64,000 bases of DNA, taken from a phage. The notes under the pieces are model-generated. The model saw only the letters and a program-made list of their open reading frames with translations, did not search any database and was not told where the DNA came from. The DNA lies in assembly GCA_019385495.1 (NCBI GenBank), contig GCA_019385495.1_4102.1, one strand, 5' to 3'. The position numbers and the translations under genes are program-made. Position 1 is the first letter of the stretch; every line of letters begins with the position of its first letter. Shown here in pieces: positions 678-26,442 of this stretch.

Positions 678-741
678 TTTGGACATTTTAAATCTTAGTG
701 ATATAATACTCACAACAACGAAATAATAGAGGAAATTAACA

Positions 742-1437
742 ATGGTTGAACAATTCATGTTTGGTGGTTATGCTAATGGCGAAGTACGTAACATTTCTAT
801 TCCTTACGTAGTTGAGAAAGTTAATGGTTCAGAACGTACATATGATCTAGCATCTCGTATGATGCAAGACCGTATCATTTTCCTTGATACTGATTTCAAT
901 GATCAAATGGCACATATCATCAAACAACAATTGGTATGGTTAGACTCACAAGGTGATTCCCCTATTACATTCTACATTAGTTCACCGGGTGGTTCAGTAC
1001 ACGCAGGTTTGGGTATTGCAGATGTTGCTAAGTCTTGTATTTCTCCAATTCGCACTGTAGTAATGGGCTATGCAGCATCAATGGGTTGCTATACACAATC
1101 TGTAATTGGTACTAAAGGTTTCCGTTTAGGTGGTAAGCGTTCTTATTTCATGTGTCACCAAGTAAGTTCTGGTACACAAGGTCTAATTACTGACCAGAAG
1201 ATTTCACTTAAACATTCTGATGCCCTAAACACTCTATTGACTAAAGAAATTGCAGAAGCAGTTGGTGTATCACACGAACAACTACTGAAAGATGCGGATC
1301 GTGACCTGTGGTTGAACGCTGAAGAAGCACTCGAATACGGTGAACATGGTTTCATTGATGGTATCATCCTCGGACCACGCAACGAAGAAGGTAAGTATCT
1401 CGTCAAACGTCGCGGTGGCGTTGAAGAGTGGGTCTAA
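742..1437 (+). CDS. clpP: ClpP-family serine peptidase (S14)
   Basis: ISSPGGSV, catalytic Ser in GYAASMG and His in MCHQV, collinear with bacterial ClpP; RBS AGAGGAAA upstream. Confidence 0.85.
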   Translation: MVEQFMFGGYANGEVRNISIPYVVEKVNGSERTYDLASRMMQDRIIFLDTDFNDQMAHIIKQQLVWLDSQGDSPITFYISSPGGSVHAGLGIADVAKSCISPIRTVVMGYAASMGCYTQSVIGTKGFRLGGKRSYFMCHQVSSGTQGLITDQKISLKHSDALNTLLTKEIAEAVGVSHEQLLKDADRDLWLNAEEALEYGEHGFIDGIILGPRNEEGKYLVKRRGGVEEWV

Positions 1438-1488
1438 TTTGAATTTCATTTGATGCCTCATTTGGGGCATCTTATTTCTGGAGATTTT

Positions 1489-1779
1489 ATGAAAGTTCTT
1501 GTACGTAATAATACTGAAGTCAATGATGTGTTAGATGATTCAGAGTTTATTAATACCGCATTAGATCAGATTAGTGCAGTGGCTATTGAATTGAAAGGTG
1601 TTGACGAGGCAGAACGAGTACTCAATGGTTTTTCTATTGTTCTCGAATTAATGCAAGAAGTTCTTATTAAAAAGAACATTAATCCAATTAACGCAGTTCA
1701 ACACGCAGAAGCTATGCGTCAAGAACATGGCACATTCTCAGATAAAAAATTCATCAGTACTGACGAGGGGAAAGAATAA
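1489..1779 (+). CDS. hypothetical protein
   Basis: ORF 1450..1779; internal ATG (M14) preceded by GGAG. Confidence 0.45.
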   Translation: MKVLVRNNTEVNDVLDDSEFINTALDQISAVAIELKGVDEAERVLNGFSIVLELMQEVLIKKNINPINAVQHAEAMRQEHGTFSDKKFISTDEGKE

Positions 1780-1780
1780 T

Positions 1781-2227
1781 ATGTCTAATGCACAATACAA
1801 AGAAGGTTCTGCCGCGTTTAAAAACAAAGTAGTTTTTAACAATGAACAGCTAAAATCACAGCACCCATTATTCCGTCAAGGATATCGTGCTGCACAAGCT
1901 GAAGCTATGAAGAAAAATAACGTAACCTTCCCAACAACTCTGTATGATATTCCCAAACGTCCTTCAGTGTTTAAAGCAGAATGGACTGACATTATGGCAG
2001 CAACTAAACGTCCTCGTTTTGCTAAACTTCACACTGATGAAGGTCGCTGGATGTTGATGGGTATTATGAAAGCAGTTGAGAATCAGGCACATACTATTGT
2101 TCGTTACAAAGACGTTGTAGCTATGGTTGATAAAGCATTTGATCTTATTCTCCAGTACGGTTATGATGAAGGTGTACTAACTGTTTCCGATTGTGAGCAG
2201 TACCAGTACACTCCATTCCAGAAATAA
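1781..2227 (+). CDS. hypothetical protein
   Basis: ORF 1727..2227; ATG at M19 directly after the upstream stop, GAGGGG upstream. Confidence 0.55.
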   Translation: MSNAQYKEGSAAFKNKVVFNNEQLKSQHPLFRQGYRAAQAEAMKKNNVTFPTTLYDIPKRPSVFKAEWTDIMAATKRPRFAKLHTDEGRWMLMGIMKAVENQAHTIVRYKDVVAMVDKAFDLILQYGYDEGVLTVSDCEQYQYTPFQK

Positions 2228-2346
2228 TTACTTAGGGAATCTTTCATGATTCCCATTTTATTTGCTGCATATCAAAAATTATTGATCAAAAATTGATCCA
2301 TACAAGGTAAATACCCAAGGTGTAATTGTTAATAGGGTAGGTGGAT

Positions 2347-2895
2347 ATGCAGCAATATAATTTAACTGAAGAACAAAGTGATATTTTTTATCATCATATG
2401 TTTTTAATTGATGAGTTTGCTTTGAAAATTAATTCTGAAGCAATTGATATATTGAAGAAATGGTATTCATATTATAATAAAAACAAAAAGTGGTATTGGT
2501 TTAATAGAAATTTAAAGTCATTTTTAAAAACAATAACACAAGTTGATAGTGTAGAAATGATACATAGTTCAATTGGATATAGTTATTTGACTAAACACAA
2601 TAATACTATGATGTTATCCGGTTTTAAAGTTGAAAGAATTTCAAAGCTTACAGGTTTATCATTAAAAACAATTTTATATGATATAGAAAAGATTTGGAAA
2701 ACTATAGAATTCATGCACAAAAATATGTCATTCATATATAGAAATTATGATATATTCACTGAGGTACGTCAATATCATAATAAACCTTATGTATTGAATG
2801 AAAAGTACTATAATCATATGGAAGTTTGTTCTAAACTCGTTGATGATTGGAATCTAGAGGGACATAATGAAATACACACACCTAAGTATAGATGA
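2347..2895 (+). CDS. hypothetical protein
   Basis: ORF 2341..2895 (GTG); ATG at codon 3. Confidence 0.5.
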   Translation: MQQYNLTEEQSDIFYHHMFLIDEFALKINSEAIDILKKWYSYYNKNKKWYWFNRNLKSFLKTITQVDSVEMIHSSIGYSYLTKHNNTMMLSGFKVERISKLTGLSLKTILYDIEKIWKTIEFMHKNMSFIYRNYDIFTEVRQYHNKPYVLNEKYYNHMEVCSKLVDDWNLEGHNEIHTPKYR

Positions 2896-3391
2896 TACTA
2901 ATATCTGGTTAGATAACATAATCAAGACATTAGAATTAATTAAACTTACATTACAAAAAACTACTGATATTGAAATTAATATTAAACAAGAAATATTAAA
3001 CTATTATCATAGAAACAAATATAGCACGTTTATCTCTAAATTAATTTATGGATTATATGATATTGAAGATATTTGCATCGGTTACAGTACTGGTATTTGC
3101 TTCACTGTTAATGGTTTAAAAAATGATTTAAATTTCAGACTTTCCGATGAAGAGCAAGATTTTCGTAGATTTTGTGATAATATTATGGATACAGACAAAA
3201 TTACATTTGTGATTGAATTAAATCAAACATGGTCTACATATGCAGATAAACCATTTGAAATTAATGAAACAGATGTGTTAAACTATATTCGAGTTATGAA
3301 AATTCATGATTTGTGTAAAAACGCATTGTTAAGTATTGGAGCTTATAATGAAACATACGACTTGGTTGAAGATAGCAGAAGTAGTTGCTGA
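2867..3391 (+). CDS. hypothetical protein
   Basis: 174 aa ORF, overlaps upstream gene by 29 nt, GAGGGA upstream. Confidence 0.45.
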   Translation: MKYTHLSIDDTNIWLDNIIKTLELIKLTLQKTTDIEINIKQEILNYYHRNKYSTFISKLIYGLYDIEDICIGYSTGICFTVNGLKNDLNFRLSDEEQDFRRFCDNIMDTDKITFVIELNQTWSTYADKPFEINETDVLNYIRVMKIHDLCKNALLSIGAYNETYDLVEDSRSSC

Positions 3392-3827
3392 GGAAAGTAA
3401 ATGTATTTCACAAAAAGTTGGTTGTGTTATTGTTAAAAATAATAGAGTATTGAGTACTGGATACAATGGAACGCCATCTAAGCAGCCAAACTGTTGTGAT
3501 GTAAATCAACATTTAGTGAACGATGGTCGTTTTCAAGACTGGGTTGATGATGCAGCAAAACATGAACATCATGAGTGGAGTAATATTCATGAGATCCATG
3601 CAGAGATGAACGCTTTACTGTATAGTTCTCCGACTGAACGCCAAGGAGCAACTCTTTACACAACTCTACAACCATGCTATACTTGTTCTAAGTTAATCGC
3701 AGGTAGTGGGATTACCCGTGTAATTTATCACAAAAGTTATCCACGAACACCACCTGAAGCGATTAAAGTACTGGAAGATGCTGGGATTATTGTTAACTGC
3801 ATTTATGACAAGGGTATGAATCAATGA
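3348..3827 (+). CDS. cd: dCMP deaminase
   Basis: Zinc-deaminase motifs HAEMNA and PCYTCSKLI; N-terminus resembles T4 Cd (from memory); ATG at M5 of ORF 3336. Confidence 0.8.
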   Translation: MKHTTWLKIAEVVAEESKCISQKVGCVIVKNNRVLSTGYNGTPSKQPNCCDVNQHLVNDGRFQDWVDDAAKHEHHEWSNIHEIHAEMNALLYSSPTERQGATLYTTLQPCYTCSKLIAGSGITRVIYHKSYPRTPPEAIKVLEDAGIIVNCIYDKGMNQ

Positions 3828-4078
3828 CATTTATGATTGTTGGATTTCTATCAATATTAGTATTATTTTTTATAACAGTAATGTTTGTTATTGATGATAA
3901 TGACATTTCTCAACGAAACTATGAAGTGCGTTTTTCTGCACAAAATAATAAGTACTATATTGTAAACTGTATACACCGTAGTGAGAAAAGGGTAACAAGT
4001 AGATTTGGATTTACCATTTATTATAAAGACCGAGTAGAAGCTGACATGATTTGTCAGAAGCTTAATACTGTAGAATAA
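3824..4078 (+). CDS. small membrane protein
   Basis: Hydrophobic N-terminal helix; ATGA overlap with upstream stop. Confidence 0.45.
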   Translation: MTFMIVGFLSILVLFFITVMFVIDDNDISQRNYEVRFSAQNNKYYIVNCIHRSEKRVTSRFGFTIYYKDRVEADMICQKLNTVE

Positions 4079-4106
4079 AAAAAGGAGCCACAAGGCTCCT
4101 TTTTTG
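4079..4106. terminator. bidirectional intrinsic terminator
   Basis: GGAGCC-ACAA-GGCTCC hairpin flanked by A-run and T-run, between convergent gene ends. Confidence 0.6.
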
Positions 4107-4484
4107 TTAACCAGGGATGTTACAATAATACAAATCCCAAGGGTGATATTTCATTTCTCCAGTACTCAATTTAATTTTATGAAACTGGAATGATTCGGCA
4201 AATGCACTATCATCAATCTTAATACAAAAAGTATTTTTTGCTAAAGTTGGTGCAATCTCTAGTGCAGTTTTAGATGCATCTAATCTGATTTTATCTTTAT
4301 CAAAACTTGTTATAGTTACAAAACGATAAACATTAAAATCAGTGTCGATAAGATCGTAAACACAACTAGAACGTTGATTAAAGATGTTCAAGTTATATTT
4401 CAATTCACCGTTTATATTAGCGGCGGTTACACAAAAGCCGCCGATATTGAATGGTAATTTACCTTGTGCTGCTATAGCTTTCAT
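4107..4484 (-). CDS. hypothetical protein (only minus-strand gene in window)
   Basis: 125 aa ORF with AAGAGGA RBS on minus strand; ends at the bidirectional terminator. Confidence 0.45.
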   Translation of the reverse strand: MKAIAAQGKLPFNIGGFCVTAANINGELKYNLNIFNQRSSCVYDLIDTDFNVYRFVTITSFDKDKIRLDASKTALEIAPTLAKNTFCIKIDDSAFAESFQFHKIKLSTGEMKYHPWDLYYCNIPG

Positions 4485-4793
4485 ATTTTATTTCCTCTTA
4501 TTAATAAACAACTACTTTTACAGATTGTTGTACCTTTTATATTTACACCGTCAACTAAATATCCACCTAAAGTGAATGGAAATTGGTCTTGTCCTGCGAT
4601 TGGTTTTCCCATTAAGGGCACTCCTTATAAAAAAGCTTTACATTTGGTATGTGTTTGTGATAGAATCTTCACAGTGATTGTACTAAGGGGATTATCAGAT
4701 GAGGGAAATTTGAGTTAAGTACAGAAAAAGTTTGACTTAAGTGTTTAAGTACTATATTATTTATATCTTCCTAACCAAAATTAAGGATTTGTT

Positions 4794-5402
4794 ATGAAAA
4801 GACTATGGCTTGAGGTAGTACAAGCAGTAATGCTTCTGATGTTGATAAATTTTCCAGCCAGTGCTGGTATTGAAAGTAAAAATGTGATAAAGTACAATCC
4901 TGAAACACGTAATGTATATTTCATCTCAGATATTACGGATGGGTCACTAAAGCGTATGATGGAGTTGTATGATAAAGAACACTATGATACCATTACCATC
5001 ACATCGCCAGGTGGTGATTTTGATGCTGGGATTAAAATGGCAAACTTCGTTAGAGACAATGGTATAAATTTAATTGTTTCTAGGTATTGCAACTCAGCAT
5101 GTACTGTGGTATTCTTCAGTGTAGCTTTTGAAAAGCGATACATGATAAATCGCTCAGTACTGGGTCTTCATAACATTTCGATTAAAAGTAATGTTACTGA
5201 TGGTGATAATTCATTTGTGTCTGTAAGACAGCTATCAACTTTTACCGAAGAAATGGCAACAAAGGTAGGTTTCCTTTTTTCACTATATGCAGCAAATGGA
5301 ATCCCACCAGAAGTTCTATTTAGAGTTAGTCGTTCTCGTGGTGAAGATGTTGTAATATTAACAAAACCAGAACTGGTTTTTTACGGTTCAGTCAAACAAT
5401 AA
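4794..5402 (+). CDS. secreted ClpP/S49-like peptidase-fold protein
   Basis: N-terminal signal peptide (MKRLWLEVVQAVMLLMLINFPASA); ITSPGGD and NSAC segments resemble the ClpP/crotonase fold. Confidence 0.5.
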   Translation: MKRLWLEVVQAVMLLMLINFPASAGIESKNVIKYNPETRNVYFISDITDGSLKRMMELYDKEHYDTITITSPGGDFDAGIKMANFVRDNGINLIVSRYCNSACTVVFFSVAFEKRYMINRSVLGLHNISIKSNVTDGDNSFVSVRQLSTFTEEMATKVGFLFSLYAANGIPPEVLFRVSRSRGEDVVILTKPELVFYGSVKQ

Positions 5403-5472
5403 AAATAATTAAAATAACAGGATGATTATGATGTACTTCCTTTGTTATTAATTATATTGAGATTATATAACT

Positions 5473-5733
5473 ATGACAAACATCCAAAACTTGACATCTA
5501 TTATTTTTTATGCTACTGTAGTAATGTATGCTACAGTTATTTTTCTAACAGTTTTCATTTACAAAGATTATCGTAATGGCTTTATTGATCCAACTACAAT
5601 GAAGTTCAATTCAAAATTCGAAGCAATAATTTATTATGTACTATCAACTTCATACTTGGTGTGCCTAATGTTGTTAGGAGCACTAATTTATATCTTATAC
5701 ACAACATTATTTGCAATTGGAGCTATTTTATGA
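5473..5733 (+). CDS. membrane protein
   Basis: 86 aa with two predicted TM helices. Confidence 0.5.
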   Translation: MTNIQNLTSIIFYATVVMYATVIFLTVFIYKDYRNGFIDPTTMKFNSKFEAIIYYVLSTSYLVCLMLLGALIYILYTTLFAIGAIL

Positions 5734-6323
5734 CCTGTATTATTGCACACACTGACGGAGTAAGTTCTTTTATTGCTGGGGATAAGTTAGGAAGCAATGG
5801 ATTTACAAAAACTGTTCAAACTGAGCCAAAGGTATTCGAGAAAGAATTTATCAAGTTACATGATGATGGACTAACTAGAACTAAAGAAGTAATGGCATTG
5901 GGTTATACTACATCATTTCGTATGGGTCAGTTGTTAAATTATAACCTTAATTTACCTGAACAAGATGCTAGTCAAACATTTTCACAATATTTGGTTCTTA
6001 AAGTTATTCCAATCATTCGTCAAATGTTTAAAGAAGAATGGGGTGCACGAGATGCATCACAAGATGTAGGTGGTGGACAATTTATCATTCTCCACAATCA
6101 TACAATCTATGAAGTTCAAGAAGACTTTTCAGTACTACAACCTAAAACAAGAATTACCGCAGTAGGTAGTGGGACATATCATGCAATTGCAGCAATGCAA
6201 GCATATATTGAAGTTGAGAACGAATCTAAAAAACCACTACACGAACGTATCAAATCAATTTTTAAAATTGTTAGTGATAATGTAACAAGCGTAAGCGAAG
6301 AGTTTGATGTTTTAAAATATTAA
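5730..6323 (+). CDS. HslV/proteasome-like Ntn-hydrolase
   Basis: MTCIIAHTDG...IAGD N-terminus and TAVGSGTYHAIAAMQAY resemble HslV TTIVSV...IAGDG and IAIGSGGPYAQAAARAL; start at M24 of ORF 5661, ATGA overlap. Confidence 0.6.
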   Translation: MTCIIAHTDGVSSFIAGDKLGSNGFTKTVQTEPKVFEKEFIKLHDDGLTRTKEVMALGYTTSFRMGQLLNYNLNLPEQDASQTFSQYLVLKVIPIIRQMFKEEWGARDASQDVGGGQFIILHNHTIYEVQEDFSVLQPKTRITAVGSGTYHAIAAMQAYIEVENESKKPLHERIKSIFKIVSDNVTSVSEEFDVLKY

Positions 6324-6350
6324 AAGTACTAATATTATAAGAGAGAATAG

Positions 6351-6545
6351 ATGATGGCATACACAATTTATGAATGGGTTTTGAGTTTTTTTATAGTTTT
6401 TTCTATTGTTGTAATTTATAACAATGCTAAATGCTTATATAGAGACTTGAAATCCAATGGTTATCACAAAGATAATAATTTTATGTATGCCTATCATATT
6501 GGAATCATTCTGTTATTATCAATATATTTAATTGTTTTTTTATAA
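6351..6545 (+). CDS. small membrane protein
   Basis: 64 aa hydrophobic ORF. Confidence 0.4.
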   Translation: MMAYTIYEWVLSFFIVFSIVVIYNNAKCLYRDLKSNGYHKDNNFMYAYHIGIILLLSIYLIVFL

Positions 6546-6554
6546 GGATTGAAT

Positions 6555-7307
6555 ATGATATCAGAAAAATTTATAAGCAATGAAGGTAAAAAGCGATTAC
6601 TGATTATATCAGGTGCAGGACTTTCTGTTGAAAGTGGTATGGAACCTTTTCGATTTGATGATGGTTTGTGGGATACATTTAAAATTAATGATGTATGTAA
6701 CATTGCTAGTTTAACTACGAAATATCACGTTGTTCATTCCTTCTATAATACATTACGTGTAAAATTGGGACAATGCGAACCCAATGCAATGCATTATTTT
6801 ATAAAATCGTTAGAAGATCAATATGGTGATTGCTTCCTTCATATGACTTCTAACATGGACGATCTTTATACTCGTATTGGTGGTCATGAGCTTAAACTTC
6901 ATGGAAACTTGTGCGAAGTTATTGAAAATTATAGTATCAATTCCGATGATTATAATGTTATTAACTGCGGATACGAACCATACATACCAAAACATGATGT
7001 TTTTGCTAAACCAAATGTAGTAATGATTGGAGAATATCATCGTTATGTTGATGGTATTCGCTTACCAATTTACGAAGAACGAAATAATGTGTTGAAATCT
7101 CTTAATGAAAATGATACAGTTATTGTAATTGGTAGTAGCGATACAGTACTGGTATGGTCGAGATTAGCAGCAGCATTACCATGTTATAGTGTTAATGTTA
7201 ACATTCGTAAAAATGATAATGATTTTTTGTTTAATGAAAAAGTTATCAAGCCAGCAACCAAAGCAATACCGCATCTAGAGACTATAATTAAGGAACGTAT
7301 GAAATGA
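6555..7307 (+). CDS. Sir2-family (sirtuin-like) NAD-dependent enzyme
   Basis: ISGAGLSVESGMEPFRFDDGLW matches sirtuin GAGISxESGIxTFR; later blocks collinear with CobB; Zn-ribbon cysteines not evident. Confidence 0.75.
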   Translation: MISEKFISNEGKKRLLIISGAGLSVESGMEPFRFDDGLWDTFKINDVCNIASLTTKYHVVHSFYNTLRVKLGQCEPNAMHYFIKSLEDQYGDCFLHMTSNMDDLYTRIGGHELKLHGNLCEVIENYSINSDDYNVINCGYEPYIPKHDVFAKPNVVMIGEYHRYVDGIRLPIYEERNNVLKSLNENDTVIVIGSSDTVLVWSRLAAALPCYSVNVNIRKNDNDFLFNEKVIKPATKAIPHLETIIKERMK

Positions 7308-7855
7308 GTGTTAAAGAAGTTCCCTTTGGTGAATATGGCACACGTGCAAATTTTGTATTTTGTTATTTCTTTGCAAGAAAATGCAACCCTTACAAAAACT
7401 ATGAGTTGAATGATATACCAGAAGTAAATTTAGTATTACTGCAATTACGATGGGATGGTCTTCTTGGTGGATGTGGTGGAACCGTAGAAAGTACTGATAT
7501 CTCACTAGAAGATGCGTTGCGTCGTGAAGTTCAAGAAGAAATGGATTACAATATTTTTGTTTCCCATCTTCGACCACTCAAAACTTTTGAAATTTACCCA
7601 GGTGCAAACAGTCACAGTTTTAGCTATGAAGTAACCTATGACGAGTTGAAACACATTAGAGATGGATACACTAATGCTAAACATGCAAGTGCAGAAGTTG
7701 CTGGTGTAAATTTATGTCATATTTCTCGTTATTCTAAGGGACAAAATCGAGAAGCGGGATATAATAATCTTATGACACAGAACTTCATCGGTACAGCAAA
7801 ACAAGAATTGGAGTATCTGGTTCAAAAAGAAAACTTACTAATTAGTTATCTATAG
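7304..7855 (+). CDS. Nudix hydrolase
   Basis: Nudix box GGTVESTDISLEDALRREVQEEM; ATGA overlap with the Sir2 gene. Confidence 0.6.
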   Translation: MSVKEVPFGEYGTRANFVFCYFFARKCNPYKNYELNDIPEVNLVLLQLRWDGLLGGCGGTVESTDISLEDALRREVQEEMDYNIFVSHLRPLKTFEIYPGANSHSFSYEVTYDELKHIRDGYTNAKHASAEVAGVNLCHISRYSKGQNREAGYNNLMTQNFIGTAKQELEYLVQKENLLISYL

Positions 7856-7864
7856 GAGTTTAAC

Positions 7865-8185
7865 ATGTCTTACTCAATGTTTTTGGATGATATTCGTGAT
7901 GCAAATCTATATTATCCAAACCAAGATATGGTGGTATGTCGTGACTTTAAAAGTGCATGTGAATATGTTATTGAAAATGGAATTCCAGCATTTGTATCAT
8001 TCGACCATGACTTGGGTGATGTGAGCGAAGACGAAAAGACTGGATATTCTTTTGCTAAGTTTCTTATTGATTATATGTTTGATAATAATATTAAAGAACC
8101 GTTTGAGTACTTTGTTCACAGTAGTAATCCTGTTGGTAAAATTAATATTGAAACATACTTAAACAATGGATTTAACTCATTATGA
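7865..8185 (+). CDS. hypothetical acidic protein
   Basis: 106 aa ORF. Confidence 0.5.
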   Translation: MSYSMFLDDIRDANLYYPNQDMVVCRDFKSACEYVIENGIPAFVSFDHDLGDVSEDEKTGYSFAKFLIDYMFDNNIKEPFEYFVHSSNPVGKINIETYLNNGFNSL

Positions 8186-8484
8186 TTCAAACACACATCA
8201 AAAGTCTTATTTGTACTGTTCTGTTAGGTGCAGGAGTTCTTTGGTTCGGACAGTATCACGAGAACACTAAGCGTACCAACATTCACTACAATACCGCAGA
8301 AGTTGTTAGTTTAGGACAATGTAGCGAGTCCAAATGTTCATTTATGTATAAAACCCAAAGTGGTGAAGTACGTAATGGACTATCAAGAGAACCAGTTTCA
8401 ATTGGTCAACTTGTTTACCAGGAGTGCTGGGAAGAAAAGGTTCGAGGTTCACGTTGCTATGTTGAATACGAACCAAATATGTAA
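8182..8484 (+). CDS. membrane-anchored Cys-rich protein
   Basis: N-terminal TM helix; ATGA overlap. Confidence 0.45.
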   Translation: MIQTHIKSLICTVLLGAGVLWFGQYHENTKRTNIHYNTAEVVSLGQCSESKCSFMYKTQSGEVRNGLSREPVSIGQLVYQECWEEKVRGSRCYVEYEPNM

Positions 8485-8544
8485 TAATCCGAGTCAATAA
8501 CATTAGTCGAGTACAAGGATGTACTCATAACTCAAGGATGTTTT

Positions 8545-9984
8545 ATGAAAAAATATACAATTGACACAAACGTACTACTATCTGACCCTAATGCATCTAT
8601 TGCTTTTGATGGTGCTGCAATCATTCTACCATTTACAGTACTGGAAGAATTGGATTCAATTAAGAGTCGTAATGTAGATGTTTCACGCGATGCTCGTGTT
8701 GCTATTCGTAACATTGAAGCAATTATTGCAGATGCATCACATGATGAGATTAGTAGTACTGGTGTTAATATTGCTGATGTTCATACCAATATGAATCCTG
8801 ATAGCAAATTGTTTGTTATTACAAACGAAGAAGCTGAAGCACTAATTCGTACTAAAGGTTCAGAAGAGAAAGTTCAAACCCTTCTCAAAAGCACAGTACC
8901 TGATGATAAAATCATTCTGGTAGCTTTAGCAACAGAATCAGTACTGGTAACTCGTGATATCAACATGCGTATCAAAGCACTAAGTTATGGTGTCGAGGTA
9001 CAAGATTATCGCCATGATATTGTTATTGGTGATAGTGATTTGATTCACATTGGTCAACACCATTTGGAAATCAATTTTTGGGAAGTATATAGCAACTTAA
9101 CCAATACTAATATTCAATCCGAACAAGTTGGTCGTCGTTTGTATCATTACATTTCCAAAAGCTTGATTGAGCATTTGCTCCCACAAAATCTATGCATCGG
9201 GGATTATCTATATGATGATGCAGACGTATTATTTGTGTACGAAGGTCAATCAGCAATTGAGGAAGATGATGGAACACTAACACCAGAAGATATTTTGGTA
9301 TTCCAAGATATTGGACAATCAGTAGCTTTACGTGCTAAAGTATGGGATATTAAAGCAAAGAATATCCAACAAGCACTCGCCATCAACAGTATTCTCGATC
9401 CTGATGTACATCTAACAGTACTGCTAGGTTCTGCTGGTACTGGTAAAACACTAATTACGATTGCGACTGCATTAGAATTAGTACTGGAAAAACGTAAATA
9501 CGACCGAATCATCTTCTCTAAAACTCAAGACTCACAGTTTGAAGATATTGGTTTCTTGCCAGGTTCAGAAGCAGAAAAAGTGATTCCATTCTGTGGAGCC
9601 GCAATTGACGCGTTAGAGTTTCTTCATAAAGATGATGCTAACCCTCAAGGTAGTATTGAAGAGATTATGAAACGTAATGTTATTCAATTTAAAGCACTAA
9701 ACTTTGTACGTGGACGTTCATTCACCAACACTATTCTAGTAGTTGATGAATTCCAAAACATTACACCTGCACAAGCCAAAACAATCTTGACACGAGCAGG
9801 ATTAAACTGTAAAGTAGTAATTATGGGTAACTTGAGTCAGATTGACAGTAAGTTTATTAGTCCTGTTAACAGTGGTTTGACATATGTAACTGAGAAGTTT
9901 AAAGATTGGGCAGGTTGTCGTGTCATCGAACTTGAAGGTGTTGTTCGCTCACCACTAGCTGAATTTGCTGAAGAAAATATGTAA
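8545..9984 (+). CDS. phoH: PhoH-like ATPase with N-terminal PIN domain
   Basis: Acidic PIN-like N-terminus (TNVLLSD...LEELD); Walker A GSAGTGKT, Walker B VVDEFQN. Confidence 0.8.
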   Translation: MKKYTIDTNVLLSDPNASIAFDGAAIILPFTVLEELDSIKSRNVDVSRDARVAIRNIEAIIADASHDEISSTGVNIADVHTNMNPDSKLFVITNEEAEALIRTKGSEEKVQTLLKSTVPDDKIILVALATESVLVTRDINMRIKALSYGVEVQDYRHDIVIGDSDLIHIGQHHLEINFWEVYSNLTNTNIQSEQVGRRLYHYISKSLIEHLLPQNLCIGDYLYDDADVLFVYEGQSAIEEDDGTLTPEDILVFQDIGQSVALRAKVWDIKAKNIQQALAINSILDPDVHLTVLLGSAGTGKTLITIATALELVLEKRKYDRIIFSKTQDSQFEDIGFLPGSEAEKVIPFCGAAIDALEFLHKDDANPQGSIEEIMKRNVIQFKALNFVRGRSFTNTILVVDEFQNITPAQAKTILTRAGLNCKVVIMGNLSQIDSKFISPVNSGLTYVTEKFKDWAGCRVIELEGVVRSPLAEFAEENM

Positions 9985-18331: not shown

Positions 18332-21028
18332 ATGTCAAAGAAAATATATGGTGGCTTAGATGTCACACATAATGTGACAGTTAATGGTAAAAGAACAATT
18401 CAAGGAATAAATGAACAAGTTTTTGATTCCAACGGTAACTTGGAATTAGATACTTATTCCAGAGATGAAGTACTAGATATAGTAAGTATGATACCAATCT
18501 CCCATTATGGTTCACAAAACTATCTACCTGCGGGTGTTTCTGGGGATTTCAATGGTGCATCAGAAAACCAGTCACAACGTAGAAATAAAATTTTATTAGA
18601 AAACGATGGTACACTAGTGCTTTTACGTAGTGGGACAAACGGTAGTGTTGAGGGATTATTTTATTCATATTTGGCTAACGCATTATCAGTTGATGACATG
18701 AGCCGTACAATTAACACCAGTCGTCAATACAAGCCTGGGTTTTTTGGTTCAAATAGAGTTGCGATTGGTTTATACAATACTGATCCAAATATTTTACTCG
18801 GTAGATATATTGATACTTCTAACAGTACTAATGGTTTGTTCATATCAATTACCAATGGTACATTAGATGATAAATTGCATACTGGTTTTTTCGTTAACCA
18901 AGCAGATATATCACCGGAAGGTGGTATTGAATATGCTATGATGGCAGAAGATGGTTCTATATATGTTTTTAGCGTACTTAATGAAAATAACCAACTACAA
19001 TTAGTTGTTGTTAAAGTTGTTTATAATATAAGCAATGGTACTTATACTGCAACTCGAATTACTGGATGGACTACTAAAACATTTTATAACACGACATATT
19101 CTGCACAAAATAATATGGTTATTACTAATCAGGTAAGATCAACAAATATTGCTGATAAACCTTATGCTTATGTCCCACAAAATCTACGCGGTATTGGGAT
19201 TTACATGACATCAATTGATTTATATGTTGCACAGCAGCCAGGAACGCAGAATTTCCGCTTTAGAATGAACGGGGACGCTTGGTTTACAATGGCAACATAT
19301 AATACACGTCCACAGCATAGTTACAGTTTTGTGTTCAATATGAGTACTAAACAATGTACATTAGATGCGGGTAACGATATTGGTTCATATCAAGCACCAT
19401 TAGTTATAACTAATACTGGTTCGGCATTAGTTCCTACTGGTAACGTTTTAAATAACGATCCATTGTATAACCATGCAAATGCAAGAAACATTTATAGTTC
19501 ATATTTTTATTTAAATTCAGGTGAAGCATTTTGTACTGCATGTCCAAACTTAGCAGAACCATTACTTATGCAAAAAGCTAAGTTTCCTATTCAAATAGTT
19601 TATAGTATGCTGAATGTCCGTGCTGTACTTTCTACTGACTTCAAAGGTGGTATAGTTCGCCCGTCTTTTGGTTCAGCGGTTGGTTCATTTATTAATGGTG
19701 TAGAATTACTACCAGATAACAGTACTAAACAATATTCACGTGCATCAGGTAGTGGTGGATTTAGACCATCATATGCAGTTCATAAAAGTACTCCTAATTT
19801 TACATTTAAATCATTATCTTTAGGAACAATACAAGGTTATGAACCTACAGTTGAACGTGCTAATGTTGATGATAATGCAAATAATAGAATTTTTATTAGT
19901 AGTATTTCTGGGTCAACTGTCACAACCAATGGTGGTATTTTTATGGTTGGGCAACGTTATTCACAATCATTATCCTATGATAAAAACTTAAATGGCACAG
20001 GAATTATAAGCGTTACACAATCAGTACTGGACAATTTTAGAAATACTGAATATGCCAAAGTTCTAAGTGATTGGAATTTATCAGCACAAGCATACCGTGA
20101 TATGACACTATTTGTTCCACAACAAACAGACATTCCAGCTTTTGTTATGTTGAGTACAATTACTAATGATTATAGAAACTATATTAGAATTGCTGAAGTT
20201 AATGTCAATACTAGAGTTGGTAATATTACATCTATTACATTTAAGCGTTTAGTACTTGAGAATACGTATGGTGATAACTTTACACCAACTGGGAATGGTT
20301 CGATTGCATCTTCTTCTGTTGGTTTGACAATATATGATGGTGGTTCATTCTACTTCATTGGTGGTTCTGATCCATTATCACATCCAACAATAGGTAATAC
20401 TGCAACTCATCAATTTAGAGCATATGTAACTAAATCAACTGCACAATTTACAAGTTTTATAATTACTGGATCTCATGCCAGTTATGAACAAGGAAGTCAA
20501 CCAGCAGCATTACCTGGTATTGGTTTTGGAATTTTTGAACCAATGGATTACTCAAATAAAATGACATTCAAAAAATATGGAACAACGATTGCAGACTATA
20601 ATAACTGGACTGCACAAGGTAGCCCAATTAACGTAGTATCCCAGGACGTTGCTCAAGGGTTTATTGTATATTTTACAGAGGAAACACCAGTTATTCTTTC
20701 AGGTAAGTCATTTTCACTACCAGTTTCAAATATTGATTTGAGAACTATTAAGTCTAATCCAGCAAATACAACATTTTATGTATATGTTAAATTGGAACAA
20801 GGATTGGCAAACTATTACATAACTACTGATGTTATTTCTGAAACAGGAACAACTGCATATAATATTTTTTGGATAGGTACAATTCAAACTAATGCAATTC
20901 AAATCGAAACAATTAATATACAAAAACGTTCCCGTTTAGATATATTTGGTGCTTCACTTGAATCAGCAGGTTCATCGTTCCCAGTTAGCTACGGTCTACC
21001 ATCACAAACAGGAACCATAAACTGGTAA
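18332..21028 (+). CDS. tail fibre protein, paralogue 1 (898 aa)
   Basis: G/S/T/N-rich; N- and C-terminal modules shared with ORF 21644..24373; C-terminal tail ...SSFPVSYGLPSQTGTINW. Confidence 0.6.
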   Translation: MSKKIYGGLDVTHNVTVNGKRTIQGINEQVFDSNGNLELDTYSRDEVLDIVSMIPISHYGSQNYLPAGVSGDFNGASENQSQRRNKILLENDGTLVLLRSGTNGSVEGLFYSYLANALSVDDMSRTINTSRQYKPGFFGSNRVAIGLYNTDPNILLGRYIDTSNSTNGLFISITNGTLDDKLHTGFFVNQADISPEGGIEYAMMAEDGSIYVFSVLNENNQLQLVVVKVVYNISNGTYTATRITGWTTKTFYNTTYSAQNNMVITNQVRSTNIADKPYAYVPQNLRGIGIYMTSIDLYVAQQPGTQNFRFRMNGDAWFTMATYNTRPQHSYSFVFNMSTKQCTLDAGNDIGSYQAPLVITNTGSALVPTGNVLNNDPLYNHANARNIYSSYFYLNSGEAFCTACPNLAEPLLMQKAKFPIQIVYSMLNVRAVLSTDFKGGIVRPSFGSAVGSFINGVELLPDNSTKQYSRASGSGGFRPSYAVHKSTPNFTFKSLSLGTIQGYEPTVERANVDDNANNRIFISSISGSTVTTNGGIFMVGQRYSQSLSYDKNLNGTGIISVTQSVLDNFRNTEYAKVLSDWNLSAQAYRDMTLFVPQQTDIPAFVMLSTITNDYRNYIRIAEVNVNTRVGNITSITFKRLVLENTYGDNFTPTGNGSIASSSVGLTIYDGGSFYFIGGSDPLSHPTIGNTATHQFRAYVTKSTAQFTSFIITGSHASYEQGSQPAALPGIGFGIFEPMDYSNKMTFKKYGTTIADYNNWTAQGSPINVVSQDVAQGFIVYFTEETPVILSGKSFSLPVSNIDLRTIKSNPANTTFYVYVKLEQGLANYYITTDVISETGTTAYNIFWIGTIQTNAIQIETINIQKRSRLDIFGASLESAGSSFPVSYGLPSQTGTINW

Positions 21029-21039
21029 AGGATTACATA

Positions 21040-21627
21040 ATGGCATATAAAATAAGAGCAGACCTTAAGGCAATGCAACAAGTAACAGTTCAGGGTAAAA
21101 GTACTGGTCTTGGTGTATTAGGTAATAATATGACTTATTACCCAACAAATTCAAATGGGGAATGTACATTCCCCTCTATTACCAAAGATGAAGTTAACTT
21201 TATTGTCAATGGATTACCACTTACACAATACGGAGAATTGTATGATGACGCTAGTCTAAATATTACTTCATCAGGCTATAGTCTTACATTTAACAGACAG
21301 ATACCATCATTTATTGGTGGTTATCTTTATAAATTTCCAGCAGTTTCTATTTTTGCTTCAACTGTTTCATCTGGAACACAAACACAATACGTATATGCAA
21401 CGTTAGTTCTCGGTGAACCAATTTATAAAATATCACCAACACAAATACAAGAATCTGAAATTATAATGTTTATTGGAACACTGACCGTTGGTACAAGTGG
21501 TATTACAAATATAAACATTAATAAAGTATCCAGATTTAGTACATATAGACCTAGTGTTACACAAAAAGGTTCTTCATTCCCAGTCAGTACTGGAAAACCA
21601 TCAGAAACTGGTACAATTGGTTGGTAA
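21040..21627 (+). CDS. short tail-fibre-like protein (195 aa)
   Basis: Carries the same C-terminal motif RFSTYRPS...SSFPVSTGKPSETGTIGW. Confidence 0.5.
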   Translation: MAYKIRADLKAMQQVTVQGKSTGLGVLGNNMTYYPTNSNGECTFPSITKDEVNFIVNGLPLTQYGELYDDASLNITSSGYSLTFNRQIPSFIGGYLYKFPAVSIFASTVSSGTQTQYVYATLVLGEPIYKISPTQIQESEIIMFIGTLTVGTSGITNININKVSRFSTYRPSVTQKGSSFPVSTGKPSETGTIGW

Positions 21628-21643
21628 ATTAAGGAAAAGAAAG

Positions 21644-24373
21644 ATGTCATCAAAACGAATTATAGGAAGTGCCGAGATCCTTGGGAACTTGGCAATTGGA
21701 CAAAGGTACGCTATGCGTACTTTTAATGGAACCTCACCGAATGCCAATACTGGAATTGTTCAATATCCAATATATAAGCGTTCAGAAGTTCAAAGTATTT
21801 TAGATATGTTGCCTATATCACGTGTAGGAGAAATGGATTACTTACCATTAAACGTAAGTGGGTCGTATGAAGGTGCTACACCTATGTCAAGTGACCAAGT
21901 AGTTCAGCCAACAATTATTGAAGATGATGGAACCGCCGTTGTTCTGCGTAGCGGAACCAATGGTAGTACTAAAGGTTTTTATTATTCATTTATACGAGAA
22001 CTCCGAAATATAACTATGATTTCACAAGAAAGTGTTATTTCAACCAATTCAATGTATAAACCTTCAATTATGAGTAGTACTGAAAATATTAAGTATTTTA
22101 TTGGCTCTAATGGTTATGAGATGCTTGGATGTTTAAGTACTGAAGATAATTATATTTTTACTATAACCAATGGCACATTTAACGAAATATCACATATTCA
22201 TGCTAAAGTGCCAAGTACTTCTTTTGGTAATGATATGCCAATATATACACATATTGTTGGGACAAAGGTTTATATTTGGTGTAAAGATAAAAGTGTTTCT
22301 AATTTAGGATTAGCACTTTCAATTTATACAGTAGAGCTAAGTGATGTGAAAGCAAGCTCAATGGCATCATTAACAAAAGTTACTGGGTTATCAGGTCAAA
22401 CTGTTCGAAACACAAGTTATTCTGCATCTAATAACATAAGAGTGTTCGATAAATTATATAGTGTTGGTACTAGCTCGGATTCATTATTCGAAGTTACATC
22501 ACCAGTATCACGTGTAGAATTTTCAGACTATACAGACTTTAACATTCAAGCCAACGTTAGTCCTGATTTATCAAAAATACGTGTAACTTTATATCCAACA
22601 CATCGAATGGTTACACCTTTGTATATTTCAACAGTTTATGGTACTGGAATAAGTTTTGTTTATAATATAAACTCAAAATCTATGTCACTAGATGGTAGTG
22701 CTCGTGCACCTGCAACTGTTTCATATAATAATGGATTTCAAGTTTCTAACCCATTTGAAATTAATATGGTCAACTTCACAGGGACAACTGCTGCTGGTGT
22801 ATTAGGAAACGCAGGTGGTTTATGTCAAACTAAAGATGGTTTGGTATTTGCATCTAAATTTAGATGGAGTTCAACTGAATTTTATGGTCTACAACGATAT
22901 AAGGTTAGTGGTACACCGTTTGATTCATGGGTTGCCAGTACTAGAACCGCAAGTAACGTTATAAATGCAAACGTTTTACCAGTTTTTGGTAGTGCTGTTG
23001 GTGCAAACCTTTTAGGTGTACGTTTCATCGATAATAGAAAAATATTATTAGCATGTTCTGGTACGTATGATGATGTAACATATAATTATAATAATACTGT
23101 TTTTTCTGAAATAGGTTCACAACCAACATATCAATATAACTCAGTTCAAAATAATACTACATTAAATGGTTTTGCTCCACAATCTAATCGTAAACAAATA
23201 GGCGATGATTTTACATACACTGCTATGATTTCTCTTGTTGATACCGATGGTAGTGTTAGATGCTATGGAACATCATTCATTGAAGGTGTATATAAAACAA
23301 GTGGTGGATTATTAAATCCAGATACTTTAGAATTTGATGAAACATATACAATAGAACCAACGGTATTAGAATCATTAAAACAAGATATTTTTGCTAATAT
23401 AGGAAACTCTGGCATTGTTGGTACACTATCTGGACAAATTGTATTATATTATGTACCTGATAATACTTTTTCTAAATCCATCGCAGTAGTTTCAGCATAT
23501 AATCTTAACAATAACCAAGGTTATGCAATCTATGCCGAAGTTGATGTTGTATTATCTGGAACTAACATAACTTCAGCTACATTGGTAAGTACTAGATATG
23601 AGACACTTAGTTCTGTTACAGGAATTATTACTGAAGCATATATGAAACGTTGTACTGGTCTAACAGTTGCTAAATATTCAGGATTTGGTTACATTGGTGT
23701 TGATGCCGTTCATCAATTTTCACAACCAGGTAATGCACAATTTAAGATGATGATAGCTAAAACAGTAGATGGTGTCATAACATCAAATCGTTTTTTATCA
23801 TCTAGTTACATCCAACTCGGTGCAGCATATCAACATGGTGTTATTCCTGGTGTTGGTTTTGGATATTACAATTTTCAAGATTCTGACTATCAAACCAAAT
23901 CTGTATTCAGCGTTTTTGGTACAACATCTGCTGAAATGGATGGTTTAATTAGCGGAAATGGTAGCGTTAAAGAAAAGATTGTGGTAGTATCACAAGACGT
24001 TGCACAAGGATTCTCAGTGTACTTTACACGTGAAGTTCCGGTGTTTTTAGGTGGAATTTTCGACAGACTACCTATACAAAGTGTAGATTTAAGTACTGTA
24101 AAAAGTAATCCAGCTAATACTACGTTCTATTTGTATATACAAATGAACAGGAATACTAAGAAAGCTTCATATGTTATTAGTACTGAAACTATTGATGAAT
24201 CTTTAACTAGCACTTACATTGGTAAGATAGTTACTGGAACTTCAGGAATAACTTCAATTGATACAGAAAAAGTAACTCGTTTTTTGACATATCGTCCAAG
24301 TACAACGAAACGTGGTTCAGCGATACCTGCCAGTACTGGTGTACCATCAGGTCCAGGTACACGTTGGAAATAA
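21644..24373 (+). CDS. tail fibre protein, paralogue 2 (909 aa)
   Basis: Start at M31 of ORF 21554 after AAGGAAAAG; shared blocks LRSGTNGS and VVSQDVAQGF...KSNPANTTFY. Confidence 0.6.
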   Translation: MSSKRIIGSAEILGNLAIGQRYAMRTFNGTSPNANTGIVQYPIYKRSEVQSILDMLPISRVGEMDYLPLNVSGSYEGATPMSSDQVVQPTIIEDDGTAVVLRSGTNGSTKGFYYSFIRELRNITMISQESVISTNSMYKPSIMSSTENIKYFIGSNGYEMLGCLSTEDNYIFTITNGTFNEISHIHAKVPSTSFGNDMPIYTHIVGTKVYIWCKDKSVSNLGLALSIYTVELSDVKASSMASLTKVTGLSGQTVRNTSYSASNNIRVFDKLYSVGTSSDSLFEVTSPVSRVEFSDYTDFNIQANVSPDLSKIRVTLYPTHRMVTPLYISTVYGTGISFVYNINSKSMSLDGSARAPATVSYNNGFQVSNPFEINMVNFTGTTAAGVLGNAGGLCQTKDGLVFASKFRWSSTEFYGLQRYKVSGTPFDSWVASTRTASNVINANVLPVFGSAVGANLLGVRFIDNRKILLACSGTYDDVTYNYNNTVFSEIGSQPTYQYNSVQNNTTLNGFAPQSNRKQIGDDFTYTAMISLVDTDGSVRCYGTSFIEGVYKTSGGLLNPDTLEFDETYTIEPTVLESLKQDIFANIGNSGIVGTLSGQIVLYYVPDNTFSKSIAVVSAYNLNNNQGYAIYAEVDVVLSGTNITSATLVSTRYETLSSVTGIITEAYMKRCTGLTVAKYSGFGYIGVDAVHQFSQPGNAQFKMMIAKTVDGVITSNRFLSSSYIQLGAAYQHGVIPGVGFGYYNFQDSDYQTKSVFSVFGTTSAEMDGLISGNGSVKEKIVVVSQDVAQGFSVYFTREVPVFLGGIFDRLPIQSVDLSTVKSNPANTTFYLYIQMNRNTKKASYVISTETIDESLTSTYIGKIVTGTSGITSIDTEKVTRFLTYRPSTTKRGSAIPASTGVPSGPGTRWK

Positions 24374-26040: not shown

Positions 26041-26442
26041 ATGACTACAGTTGATGATATCTATAGCACTATACGCAATATGAGTACAGATAGAAAAGTA
26101 TTTGGCGATAAAGAAAAATCTAAGTGTTATGGTATTGATTCTTTTGATATAATTTCTTATGAGTACAATACAAGTGGAAATAGTTCACTGAATATCGTCT
26201 GTCCTCGTGACCCAGAAAATAATTTTATGTATGTTGAAATTAATAATGATGGAATGTTTTTTACAAAAGTTTTCAAAGGTGGAATTAATTACGAACCTAT
26301 TGAATGTATGAATGAAGAAACTTTCTTTCAAGAAGATACAATTATCAATTTAGGTTTTAGTTTTGATGATTATAAAACATTAGAACATGACTTTAATCGT
26401 TATTATAATGGTTTCTTAAAGGAGTTAACAATTTATCTATGA
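26041..26442 (+). CDS. hypothetical protein
   Basis: 133 aa ORF. Confidence 0.5.
   Translation: MTTVDDIYSTIRNMSTDRKVFGDKEKSKCYGIDSFDIISYEYNTSGNSSLNIVCPRDPENNFMYVEINNDGMFFTKVFKGGINYEPIECMNEETFFQEDTIINLGFSFDDYKTLEHDFNRYYNGFLKELTIYL

Follow-up and report, generated by a model that had tools for sequence, protein, structure and literature searches.

A 64,000-nucleotide stretch of phage DNA (contig GCA_019385495.1_4102.1 of NCBI GenBank assembly GCA_019385495.1; hereafter the window) carries three intact open reading frames (ORFs) for proteins with peptidase folds, at positions 742–1437, 4794–5402 and 5730–6323. In our assessment these are probably three separately expressed, non-structural peptidase genes set in a region of nucleotide and nicotinamide adenine dinucleotide (NAD) metabolism, and not the parts of one protease machine: the first encodes a ClpP that would work within a ClpAPS system, the second an exported protein, and the third an orphan HslV-like protein. 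The comparisons below show folds, catalytic residues, gene surroundings, the partner genes of 121Q and phylogenetic distributions; for all three proteins we infer assembly, localisation, activity and substrates. The first-pass annotation of this DNA had recognised three protease-fold genes here; its ORF boundaries proved exact, and the folds and catalytic residues are as it described them, with the ClpP triad, Ser101/His126 of the exported protein, and Thr2/Asp18/Lys34 and the Gly-Ser-Gly motif of the HslV-like protein all conserved.

Bases 700–6400 of the window align over their full length with Escherichia phage 121Q at 92.7% DNA identity, and match 58 records of RaK2/121Q-like jumbo phages. 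Phage 121Q is an Asteriusvirus with a genome of 348.5 kb, and by this comparison the window DNA is that of a 121Q-like giant coliphage, likewise an Asteriusvirus. The 121Q orthologues of the three window genes are gp464, gp473 and gp475, of which the first two carry the note 'protease (ClpP-like)' and the third 'protease (ClpYQ-like)' in the 121Q record. None of the three is marked as structural in that record, where many genes bear such a mark. In the window, each of the three ORFs is preceded by a Shine-Dalgarno-like motif 7–10 nucleotides (nt) 5' of its start.

The 231-residue product of the first gene (742–1437) is, judged by its sequence, a genuine S14 serine peptidase of the ClpP family with an intact catalytic triad. 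It matches the Pfam CLP_protease model (PF00574) with E=3.3e-41 and 141.6 bits (cut-off 20.2), and is 37% identical to E. coli ClpP, whose Ser97, His122 and Asp171 align with Ser113 (within GYAASMG; codon at nt 1078–1080), His139 (within MCHQ; nt 1156–1158) and Asp188 (nt 1303–1305) of the window protein. Two cellular NCBIfam ClpP models score it at 152 bits (equivalog cut-off 308.6) and 155 bits (cut-off 249). Its gene is the most conserved of the region, the protein being 99.6% identical to 121Q gp464, 96% identical to its counterpart in Turkey5 and 71% identical to that of RaK2.

Candidate partners of this ClpP are known from 121Q and its relatives, at least 20 kb past the end of the window. 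The 762-residue gp581 of 121Q aligns in one continuous stretch with the ClpA model TIGR02639 (755 bits) and over its full length with E. coli ClpA (44% identity), and it has both Walker A and Walker B sites. ClpB models align with gp581 only in two pieces, and it is therefore taken to be without an M-domain. Where E. coli ClpA has the ClpP-docking SIGL, gp581 has SIGM. A second 121Q protein, gp48, contains a ClpS-like domain, although the match is weak (24.7 bits against a Pfam cut-off of 23; 31% identity over 100 aligned residues). This protein has long N- and C-terminal extensions, and the residue aligned with the N-degron-binding His66 of E. coli ClpS is not conserved.

On this reading, proteolysis in a ClpA-ClpP(-ClpS) system encoded by the phage and driven by ATP would be the task of the window ClpP, with the other components encoded elsewhere in the genome. 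The IGM loop would attach a hexamer of the ClpA-like protein to ClpP, into which proteins of the cytoplasm would be passed in unfolded form. The resemblance to E. coli ClpAPS lies in the conserved ClpP triad, in a ClpA-like protein with two AAA+ modules and a hydrophobic IG(L/M) tripeptide, and in the presence of a protein with a ClpS domain in 121Q as well. The phage system differs in that its genes are scattered across more than 260 kb and do not form one operon, and in that the phage ClpP, ClpA-like and ClpS-like proteins all fall below the NCBI equivalog cut-offs. The first-pass annotation had found no AAA+ unfoldase partner near the three genes, which is true locally but probably does not extend to the genome as a whole, given the ClpA-like gp581 (and the ClpS-like gp48) of 121Q beyond the window. 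It had also proposed a search for ClpX- or HslU-like partners in the rest of the genome; with 121Q as proxy, such a search returned the ClpA-like protein but neither ClpX nor HslU. A tblastn comparison of E. coli HslU and ClpX with the whole of 121Q and the window matched only the second ATPase domain of gp581, and no HslU or ClpX gene is present in the full 121Q annotation or in the window. Four large, unannotated window ORFs (18332–21028, 21554–24373, 59113–60630 and 60653–61633) contain no Pfam domains, and no hidden unfoldase was found among them. An AAA+ gene starting at 62730 was considered as a Clp/HslU partner and set aside, its generic Pfam AAA match being borderline (21.5 bits, cut-off 21.2). 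This gene (62730–64000) runs off the end of the window; its 121Q orthologue is gp563, which is followed by gp564, a 'Zn-dependent hydrolase', and we infer that it is the putative MoxR of the MoxR-vWA-metallopeptidase pair described in PMC7824862.

The second gene (4794–5402, 202 residues) encodes a protein that scores below the cut-off of the Pfam CLP_protease model (16.6 bits, cut-off 20.2). Profile alignment to solved ClpP structures places its Ser101 and His126 on the catalytic serine and histidine, and the best Foldseek matches of its AlphaFold2 model (mean predicted local distance difference test score, pLDDT, 90.5) are ClpP structures (E=1e-8, TM-scores 0.66/0.72). The N-terminus resembles a signal peptide, with MKR followed by hydrophobic residues 4–22 (Kyte-Doolittle 1.75) and then ASA|G. 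A signature of the form SxGG...CxSxC...H runs through the protein, comprising Ser71, Cys99, Ser101 (nt 5094–5096), Cys103 and His126 (nt 5169–5171), and among close homologues S71, G73, G74, C99, S101, C103 and H126 are invariant. The family corresponds to phrog_26024 together with bacterial relatives: when 1.84 billion representative proteins were searched with its profile, 1,867 relatives were recovered, and among the best 149 of these, S71 is kept in all 149, C103 in 147, C99 and S101 in 145 each, and H126 in 135. Pfam recognises almost none of the relatives. An N-terminal hydrophobic segment is present in 119 of the same best 149, with lipoprotein-type signals in some. The window protein appears, on these profiles, to belong to a large, uncharacterised ClpP-fold family with a CxSxC...H motif, most members of which appear to be exported. 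Its evolution is fast in comparison with that of ClpP (96.5% identity to 121Q gp473, 54% to Turkey5, 37% to RaK2).

From these features, the protein would be exported via Sec and would act in the periplasm as a Ser101/His126 hydrolase. The first-pass annotation had described it as a secreted ClpP/S49-like protein; the ClpP fold and the signal-peptide-like N-terminus are borne out, but the S49 part is not. An S49/SppA identity was ruled out, as the protein has a conserved Ser-His pair rather than a Ser-Lys dyad and matches no S49 model; S49 and NfeD profiles gave no match to the window protein, and two relatives in the family gave only sub-threshold NfeD1b_N matches. With SppA (S49) and NfeD the protein shares the ClpP/crotonase fold and a location outside the cytoplasm, predicted in its own case, but these enzymes use a Ser-Lys dyad, whereas the window family keeps the ClpP-type Ser-His pair together with two conserved cysteines (CxSxC). 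A small protein of 84–90 residues with an N-terminal transmembrane segment adjoins the exported gene both in the window (3824–4078) and in contig L008 (575–847); this neighbour is kept there even though the exported protein of L008 is only 31–34% identical to that of the window.

The third gene (5730–6323, 197 residues) encodes what is, by profile and residue comparison, a proteasome-beta/HslV/BPH-like hydrolase with an N-terminal threonine nucleophile. The earlier assignment to HslV/proteasome-like hydrolases was upheld by a full-length profile match to E. coli HslV (E=5.7e-8), in which Thr1, Asp17, Lys33 and the Gly-Ser-Gly motif of HslV are aligned; the window protein has Thr2 (nt 5733–5735), Asp18, Lys34, Gly58 and Gly146-Ser147-Gly148. 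Across 42 homologues, down to 26% identity, M1, T2, C3, D18, K34, G146 and G148 are invariant, and since M1 is among them, the start codon is the ATG at 5730 and not an upstream GTG. The protein falls short of the NCBIfam HslV equivalog (19.9 bits, cut-off 137), and a Pfam scan returned no family above threshold. Among solved structures HslV is its best sequence match, and in structural alignments it is equally close to HslV and BPH, at 16–17% identity to either. The model has helices H1 (63–72) and H2 (84–104), and H2 is followed by an acidic loop of ~13 residues (KEEWGARDASQDVGGG). In HslU-gated HslV this loop is very short, and in unfoldase-independent BPH it is long and acidic (Fuchs, Alva and Lupas 2021; PMC8665760). 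By this analogy, the acidic loop is a weak hint against HslU dependence.

The window protein and its family further differ from HslV and BPH in an invariant Cys3, in a GYTTSFRMGQ motif of their own and, in Asteriusvirus members, in an additional S3/S4-site hairpin close to the active site; the acidic loop is longer than in HslV, and 121Q encodes no HslU partner. Fuchs et al. also described the phage-associated proteasome homologues PPH, AAH and CPH (PMC8665760), which the window protein resembles as a group I proteasome-like, tailed-phage-encoded, compact subunit lacking a propeptide. It was not accepted as a PPH: these have ~140 residues and lack helix H2, whereas the window protein has 197 residues and possesses H2. 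The protein would be a cytoplasmic hydrolase whose Thr2 becomes exposed once the initiator methionine is removed, with no HslU supplied by the phage. Its family, phrog_1040, is often found among nucleotide-metabolism genes. In Aeromonas phage 2L372X (contig L025, 3001–3963) two HslV-family genes, 2L372X_210 and 2L372X_211, stand in tandem with PhoH upstream. A metagenomic phage contig (L022) carries an FtsH-like gene of 604 residues (529–2343; Peptidase_M41 and a weak Torsin/AAA match) ~1 kb upstream of an HslV-like gene whose product is 37% identical to that of the window.

Other roles can be envisaged for two of the proteins taken singly. According to a PHROG-derived RefSeq label, the ClpP of 742–1437 would be the prohead (head-maturation) protease, which we regard as very improbable. 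The best PHROG match of the window ClpP is indeed phrog_94, 'head maturation protease' (E=3.9e-44), and RefSeq gives the same label to 121Q gp464 and RaK2 ORF489. However, 121Q already has a T4 gp21-like protease, gp601 (Peptidase_S77, E=1e-20), within its head module, between the portal gene (gp598) and those for scaffold (gp602) and major capsid protein (gp603) and 120 kb from the ClpP gene, and an equivalent 'prohead core protein protease' has been reported for Sharanji (PMC11895373). Like ClpP, T4 gp21 is a phage-encoded serine protease, but its fold is unrelated to that of ClpP, and gp601, encoded separately in the head module, is the likely capsid-maturation enzyme. The NCBIfam model for ClpP-related head-maturation proteases (NF045542) scores the window protein at 51.2 bits, well under its cut-off of 120, against 155 bits on the cellular ClpP models. 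The surroundings of clpP are nucleotide-metabolism genes and not a head-morphogenesis module, and the ClpA-like unfoldase is conserved alongside it. Iyer et al. 2021 set phage ClpP apart from the S77 head peptidase, treat it as a patchily distributed candidate for anti-host action, and propose host proteins as the targets of phage ClpP and ClpS (PMC7824862). Because of the S77 protease gp601 in the 121Q head module and the scores of 155 versus 51 bits, the head-maturation label of PHROG and RefSeq is most likely a mis-annotation. Head maturation would be carried out by the separate gp21-like protease; the first-pass annotation had likewise doubted a prohead role for ClpP, and the presence of gp601 in the 121Q head module, 120 kb from clpP, bears this out. 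For the HslV-like protein, the alternative is that the orphan subunit captures host HslU, so that a chimeric HslUV redirects ATP-dependent proteolysis of the host. We consider this unlikely. E. coli encodes HslU, the tblastn comparison with 121Q and the window detected neither an HslU nor a ClpX homologue of the phage, the HslV catalytic set is fully conserved with HslV as the best match among solved structures, and orphan HslV genes lacking an HslU are on record for another jumbo phage (PMC7823757). Against these stand an identity to HslV of only ~17% in structural alignment, an equal closeness to BPH, for which no unfoldase is believed to be needed (PMC8665760), the acidic loop of ~13 residues that follows helix 2 at a point where the pore loop of HslV is very short, the extra hairpin of the Asteriusvirus proteins near the active site, and the presence of the family in phages of diverse hosts.

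A different alternative concerns the three genes jointly: they could form one module directed against envelope or defence proteins of the host, or at least the exported ClpP-fold and HslV-like genes could be a conserved pair. This seems to us quite unlikely, although the evidence is not all on one side. If five to eight peptidase-fold genes were placed at random in 348.5 kb, three starts would fall within 5.6 kb with P=0.008–0.04 in what is a post hoc test, and with six such genes the clustering departs nominally from chance (P about 0.014). Moreover, a phrog_1827 ClpP-fold gene lies directly upstream of a phrog_1040 HslV-like gene, with at most one small ORF between them, in four contigs of distant phages (L009, 6020–7564; L011, 6107–7549; L020, 2603–4055; L021, 2638–4064), the HslV-like proteins of which are only 31–33% identical to that of the window. 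These phrog_1827 neighbours are cytoplasmic proteins of 216–276 residues, labelled 'ATP-dependent protease', with a C-x-S motif at the nucleophile. The cysteine two residues before the catalytic serine is thus common to them and the exported protein, and the profiles match (hhalign probability 93%, E=2.5e-7). Neighbouring genes of the window (Sir2, Nudix, cREC) and of its relatives (NAMPT and Acb1) also look like counter-defence genes. On the other side, clpP is bracketed by promoter-like and terminator-like sites of its own and a second promoter-like site stands 5' of the exported gene; between clpP and the other two protease genes lie six unrelated genes, including that for deoxycytidine monophosphate (dCMP) deaminase and a virion protein gene on the minus strand. 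The predicted compartments differ, with the exported protein in the periplasm and the HslV-like protein in the cytoplasm. In RaK2, ClpP and the exported protein are retained, but the HslV-like gene is missing and NAD-salvage genes occupy its place, and conversely the HslV-like gene has no ClpP-fold neighbour at five loci (L013, L022, L023, EPS7 and Aeromonas 2L372X). Evolutionary rates are sharply unlike, identities to Turkey5 being 96% for ClpP, 54% for the exported protein and 64% for the HslV-like protein. PADLOC matched neither the three protease proteins nor the products of the neighbouring Sir2, Nudix and cREC genes. Each of the four adjacent pairs has PhoH upstream and dCMP deaminase downstream, and a deeply conserved gene order (PhoH ... 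dCMP deaminase) could account for the adjacency with no functional link. The recurrence of the arrangement in four lineages is a modest lead, which may reflect either a functional pair or such conserved gene order. A particular form of the pair, for which we likewise see a small chance, is a conserved two-gene proteolytic module of virulent phages whose ClpP-fold partner gained a signal peptide in Asteriusvirus/RaK2-like phages and moved to the periplasm; if this were true, one cytoplasmic and one envelope-directed protease would be deployed against host proteins, for example receptors or defence components.

We therefore retain three separately expressed peptidase genes, with ClpP in a ClpAPS system, as the probable reading, and several observations count against it in part. 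The adjacency in four lineages means that the exported and HslV-like genes may be less independent than stated. The window ClpP is, by its model scores, a diverged ClpP that lies below the NCBI equivalog cut-offs. The adaptor role of gp48 is uncertain given its weak ClpS match, and the presence of ClpA-like and ClpS-like genes in the phage of the window is extrapolated from its relatives. As regards export, Glu7 and Gln10 are invariant in the N-terminal helix of the close family, which is unusual for a simple signal peptide, and one relative that is cytoplasmic (L020) has the CxSxC cysteines as well (CGSMC), so that these are no proof of export. The literature searched yielded no data on the expression, localisation or activity of the three proteins.

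The elements framing the three genes are all on the plus strand. A sigma-70-like promoter (TGGACA, 16-nt spacer, TATAAT, extended -10 TG; 11 of 12 consensus matches) lies at 680–707, just 5' of clpP, and a terminator-like hairpin with a T-run (8-bp stem with five GC pairs) follows directly after the clpP stop codon at 1452–1471. A second sigma-70-like promoter (TTGACT, 17-nt spacer, TATTAT) is found at 4732–4760, 5' of the exported ClpP-like gene. These promoter-like sites are consensus matches only, and sites of this kind are no more numerous in the region than expected from shuffling. The signal-peptide-like segment (residues 1–24) of the exported protein is encoded by 4794–4865. Between the exported and HslV-like genes, an 86-residue protein with two predicted transmembrane segments is encoded at 5473–5733, its stop overlapping the start codon of the HslV-like gene (ATGA), the product of which is 90.9% identical to 121Q gp475. 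This small protein is kept in 121Q and Turkey5; as a conserved partner of the HslV-like protein it was rejected, since distant phages have at this position small ORFs that bear no relation to it and lack its hydrophobic character.

Downstream (3') of the HslV-like gene follow genes for Sir2 (6549–7307), a Nudt16-like Nudix protein (7304–7855), a cREC receiver-domain protein (7865–8185) and a PIN-PhoH fusion (8545–9984). In contig L008 the Nudix and cREC domains are fused in one protein and genes for NMNAT/Nudix, NAMPT and Acb1 are inserted nearby, and in RaK2 the position matching 6549–9984 of the window is occupied by NMNAT and NAMPT. The region 6549–9984 looks like a counter-defence island acting on NAD and nucleotide signals. 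Further along the window, an ORF of 756 residues (26439–28709) combines an RlaP-type nucleotidyltransferase N-terminus with a LAGLIDADG_3 domain at residues 551–610; its 121Q orthologue, gp506, has only 410 residues, and the ORF may contain an intein or a fused homing endonuclease.

The families of all three genes are known, and annotated copies that are nearly identical already exist in databases. The first-pass annotation had thought genes of this kind unusual for a phage, which is not borne out: the counts of phage records are 161 for ClpP homologues, 198 for HslV-like proteins (including T5-like Epseptimavirus, Aeromonas, Vibrio and Xanthomonas phages and SCTP-2) and 50, all of RaK2/121Q-like phages, for the exported ClpP-like gene, and the 121Q record already lists the three as proteases. 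ClpA-like genes are present in 178 phage records and co-occur with ClpP across the RaK2-like clade, where their conservation has likewise been noted (PMC6102473). ClpP, ClpS and proteasome homologues of phages have been discussed in print (PMC7824862, PMC8665760, PMC6102473). The present ClpP belongs to the same gene family and the same phage clade as the jumbo-phage ClpP/ClpS genes of PMC7824862 and the RaK2-like Clp genes of PMC6102473, and the conclusion that virion maturation is not the task of ClpP, which may have host proteins as its targets, is shared with those studies; the exported ClpP-fold paralogue and the HslV-like gene of this locus were not analysed in either. A literature search returned no experimentally tested function for phage HslV-like or phage ClpP proteins. 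Added here are a corrected annotation, in which ClpP is most likely not the head-maturation protease, the identification of candidate ClpP partner genes, and the definition of an SxGG...CxSxC...H signature for a large uncharacterised family whose members appear mostly to be exported.

Taken together, these comparisons suggest that giant RaK2/121Q-like phages carry an ATP-dependent protease of their own, with predicted ClpP, ClpA-like and ClpS-like components, and two further peptidases. If ClpAP or the orphan HslV-like enzyme removes defence or regulatory proteins of the host, this would amount to a strategy of proteolytic takeover, and the exported ClpP-fold enzyme could alter the host envelope.

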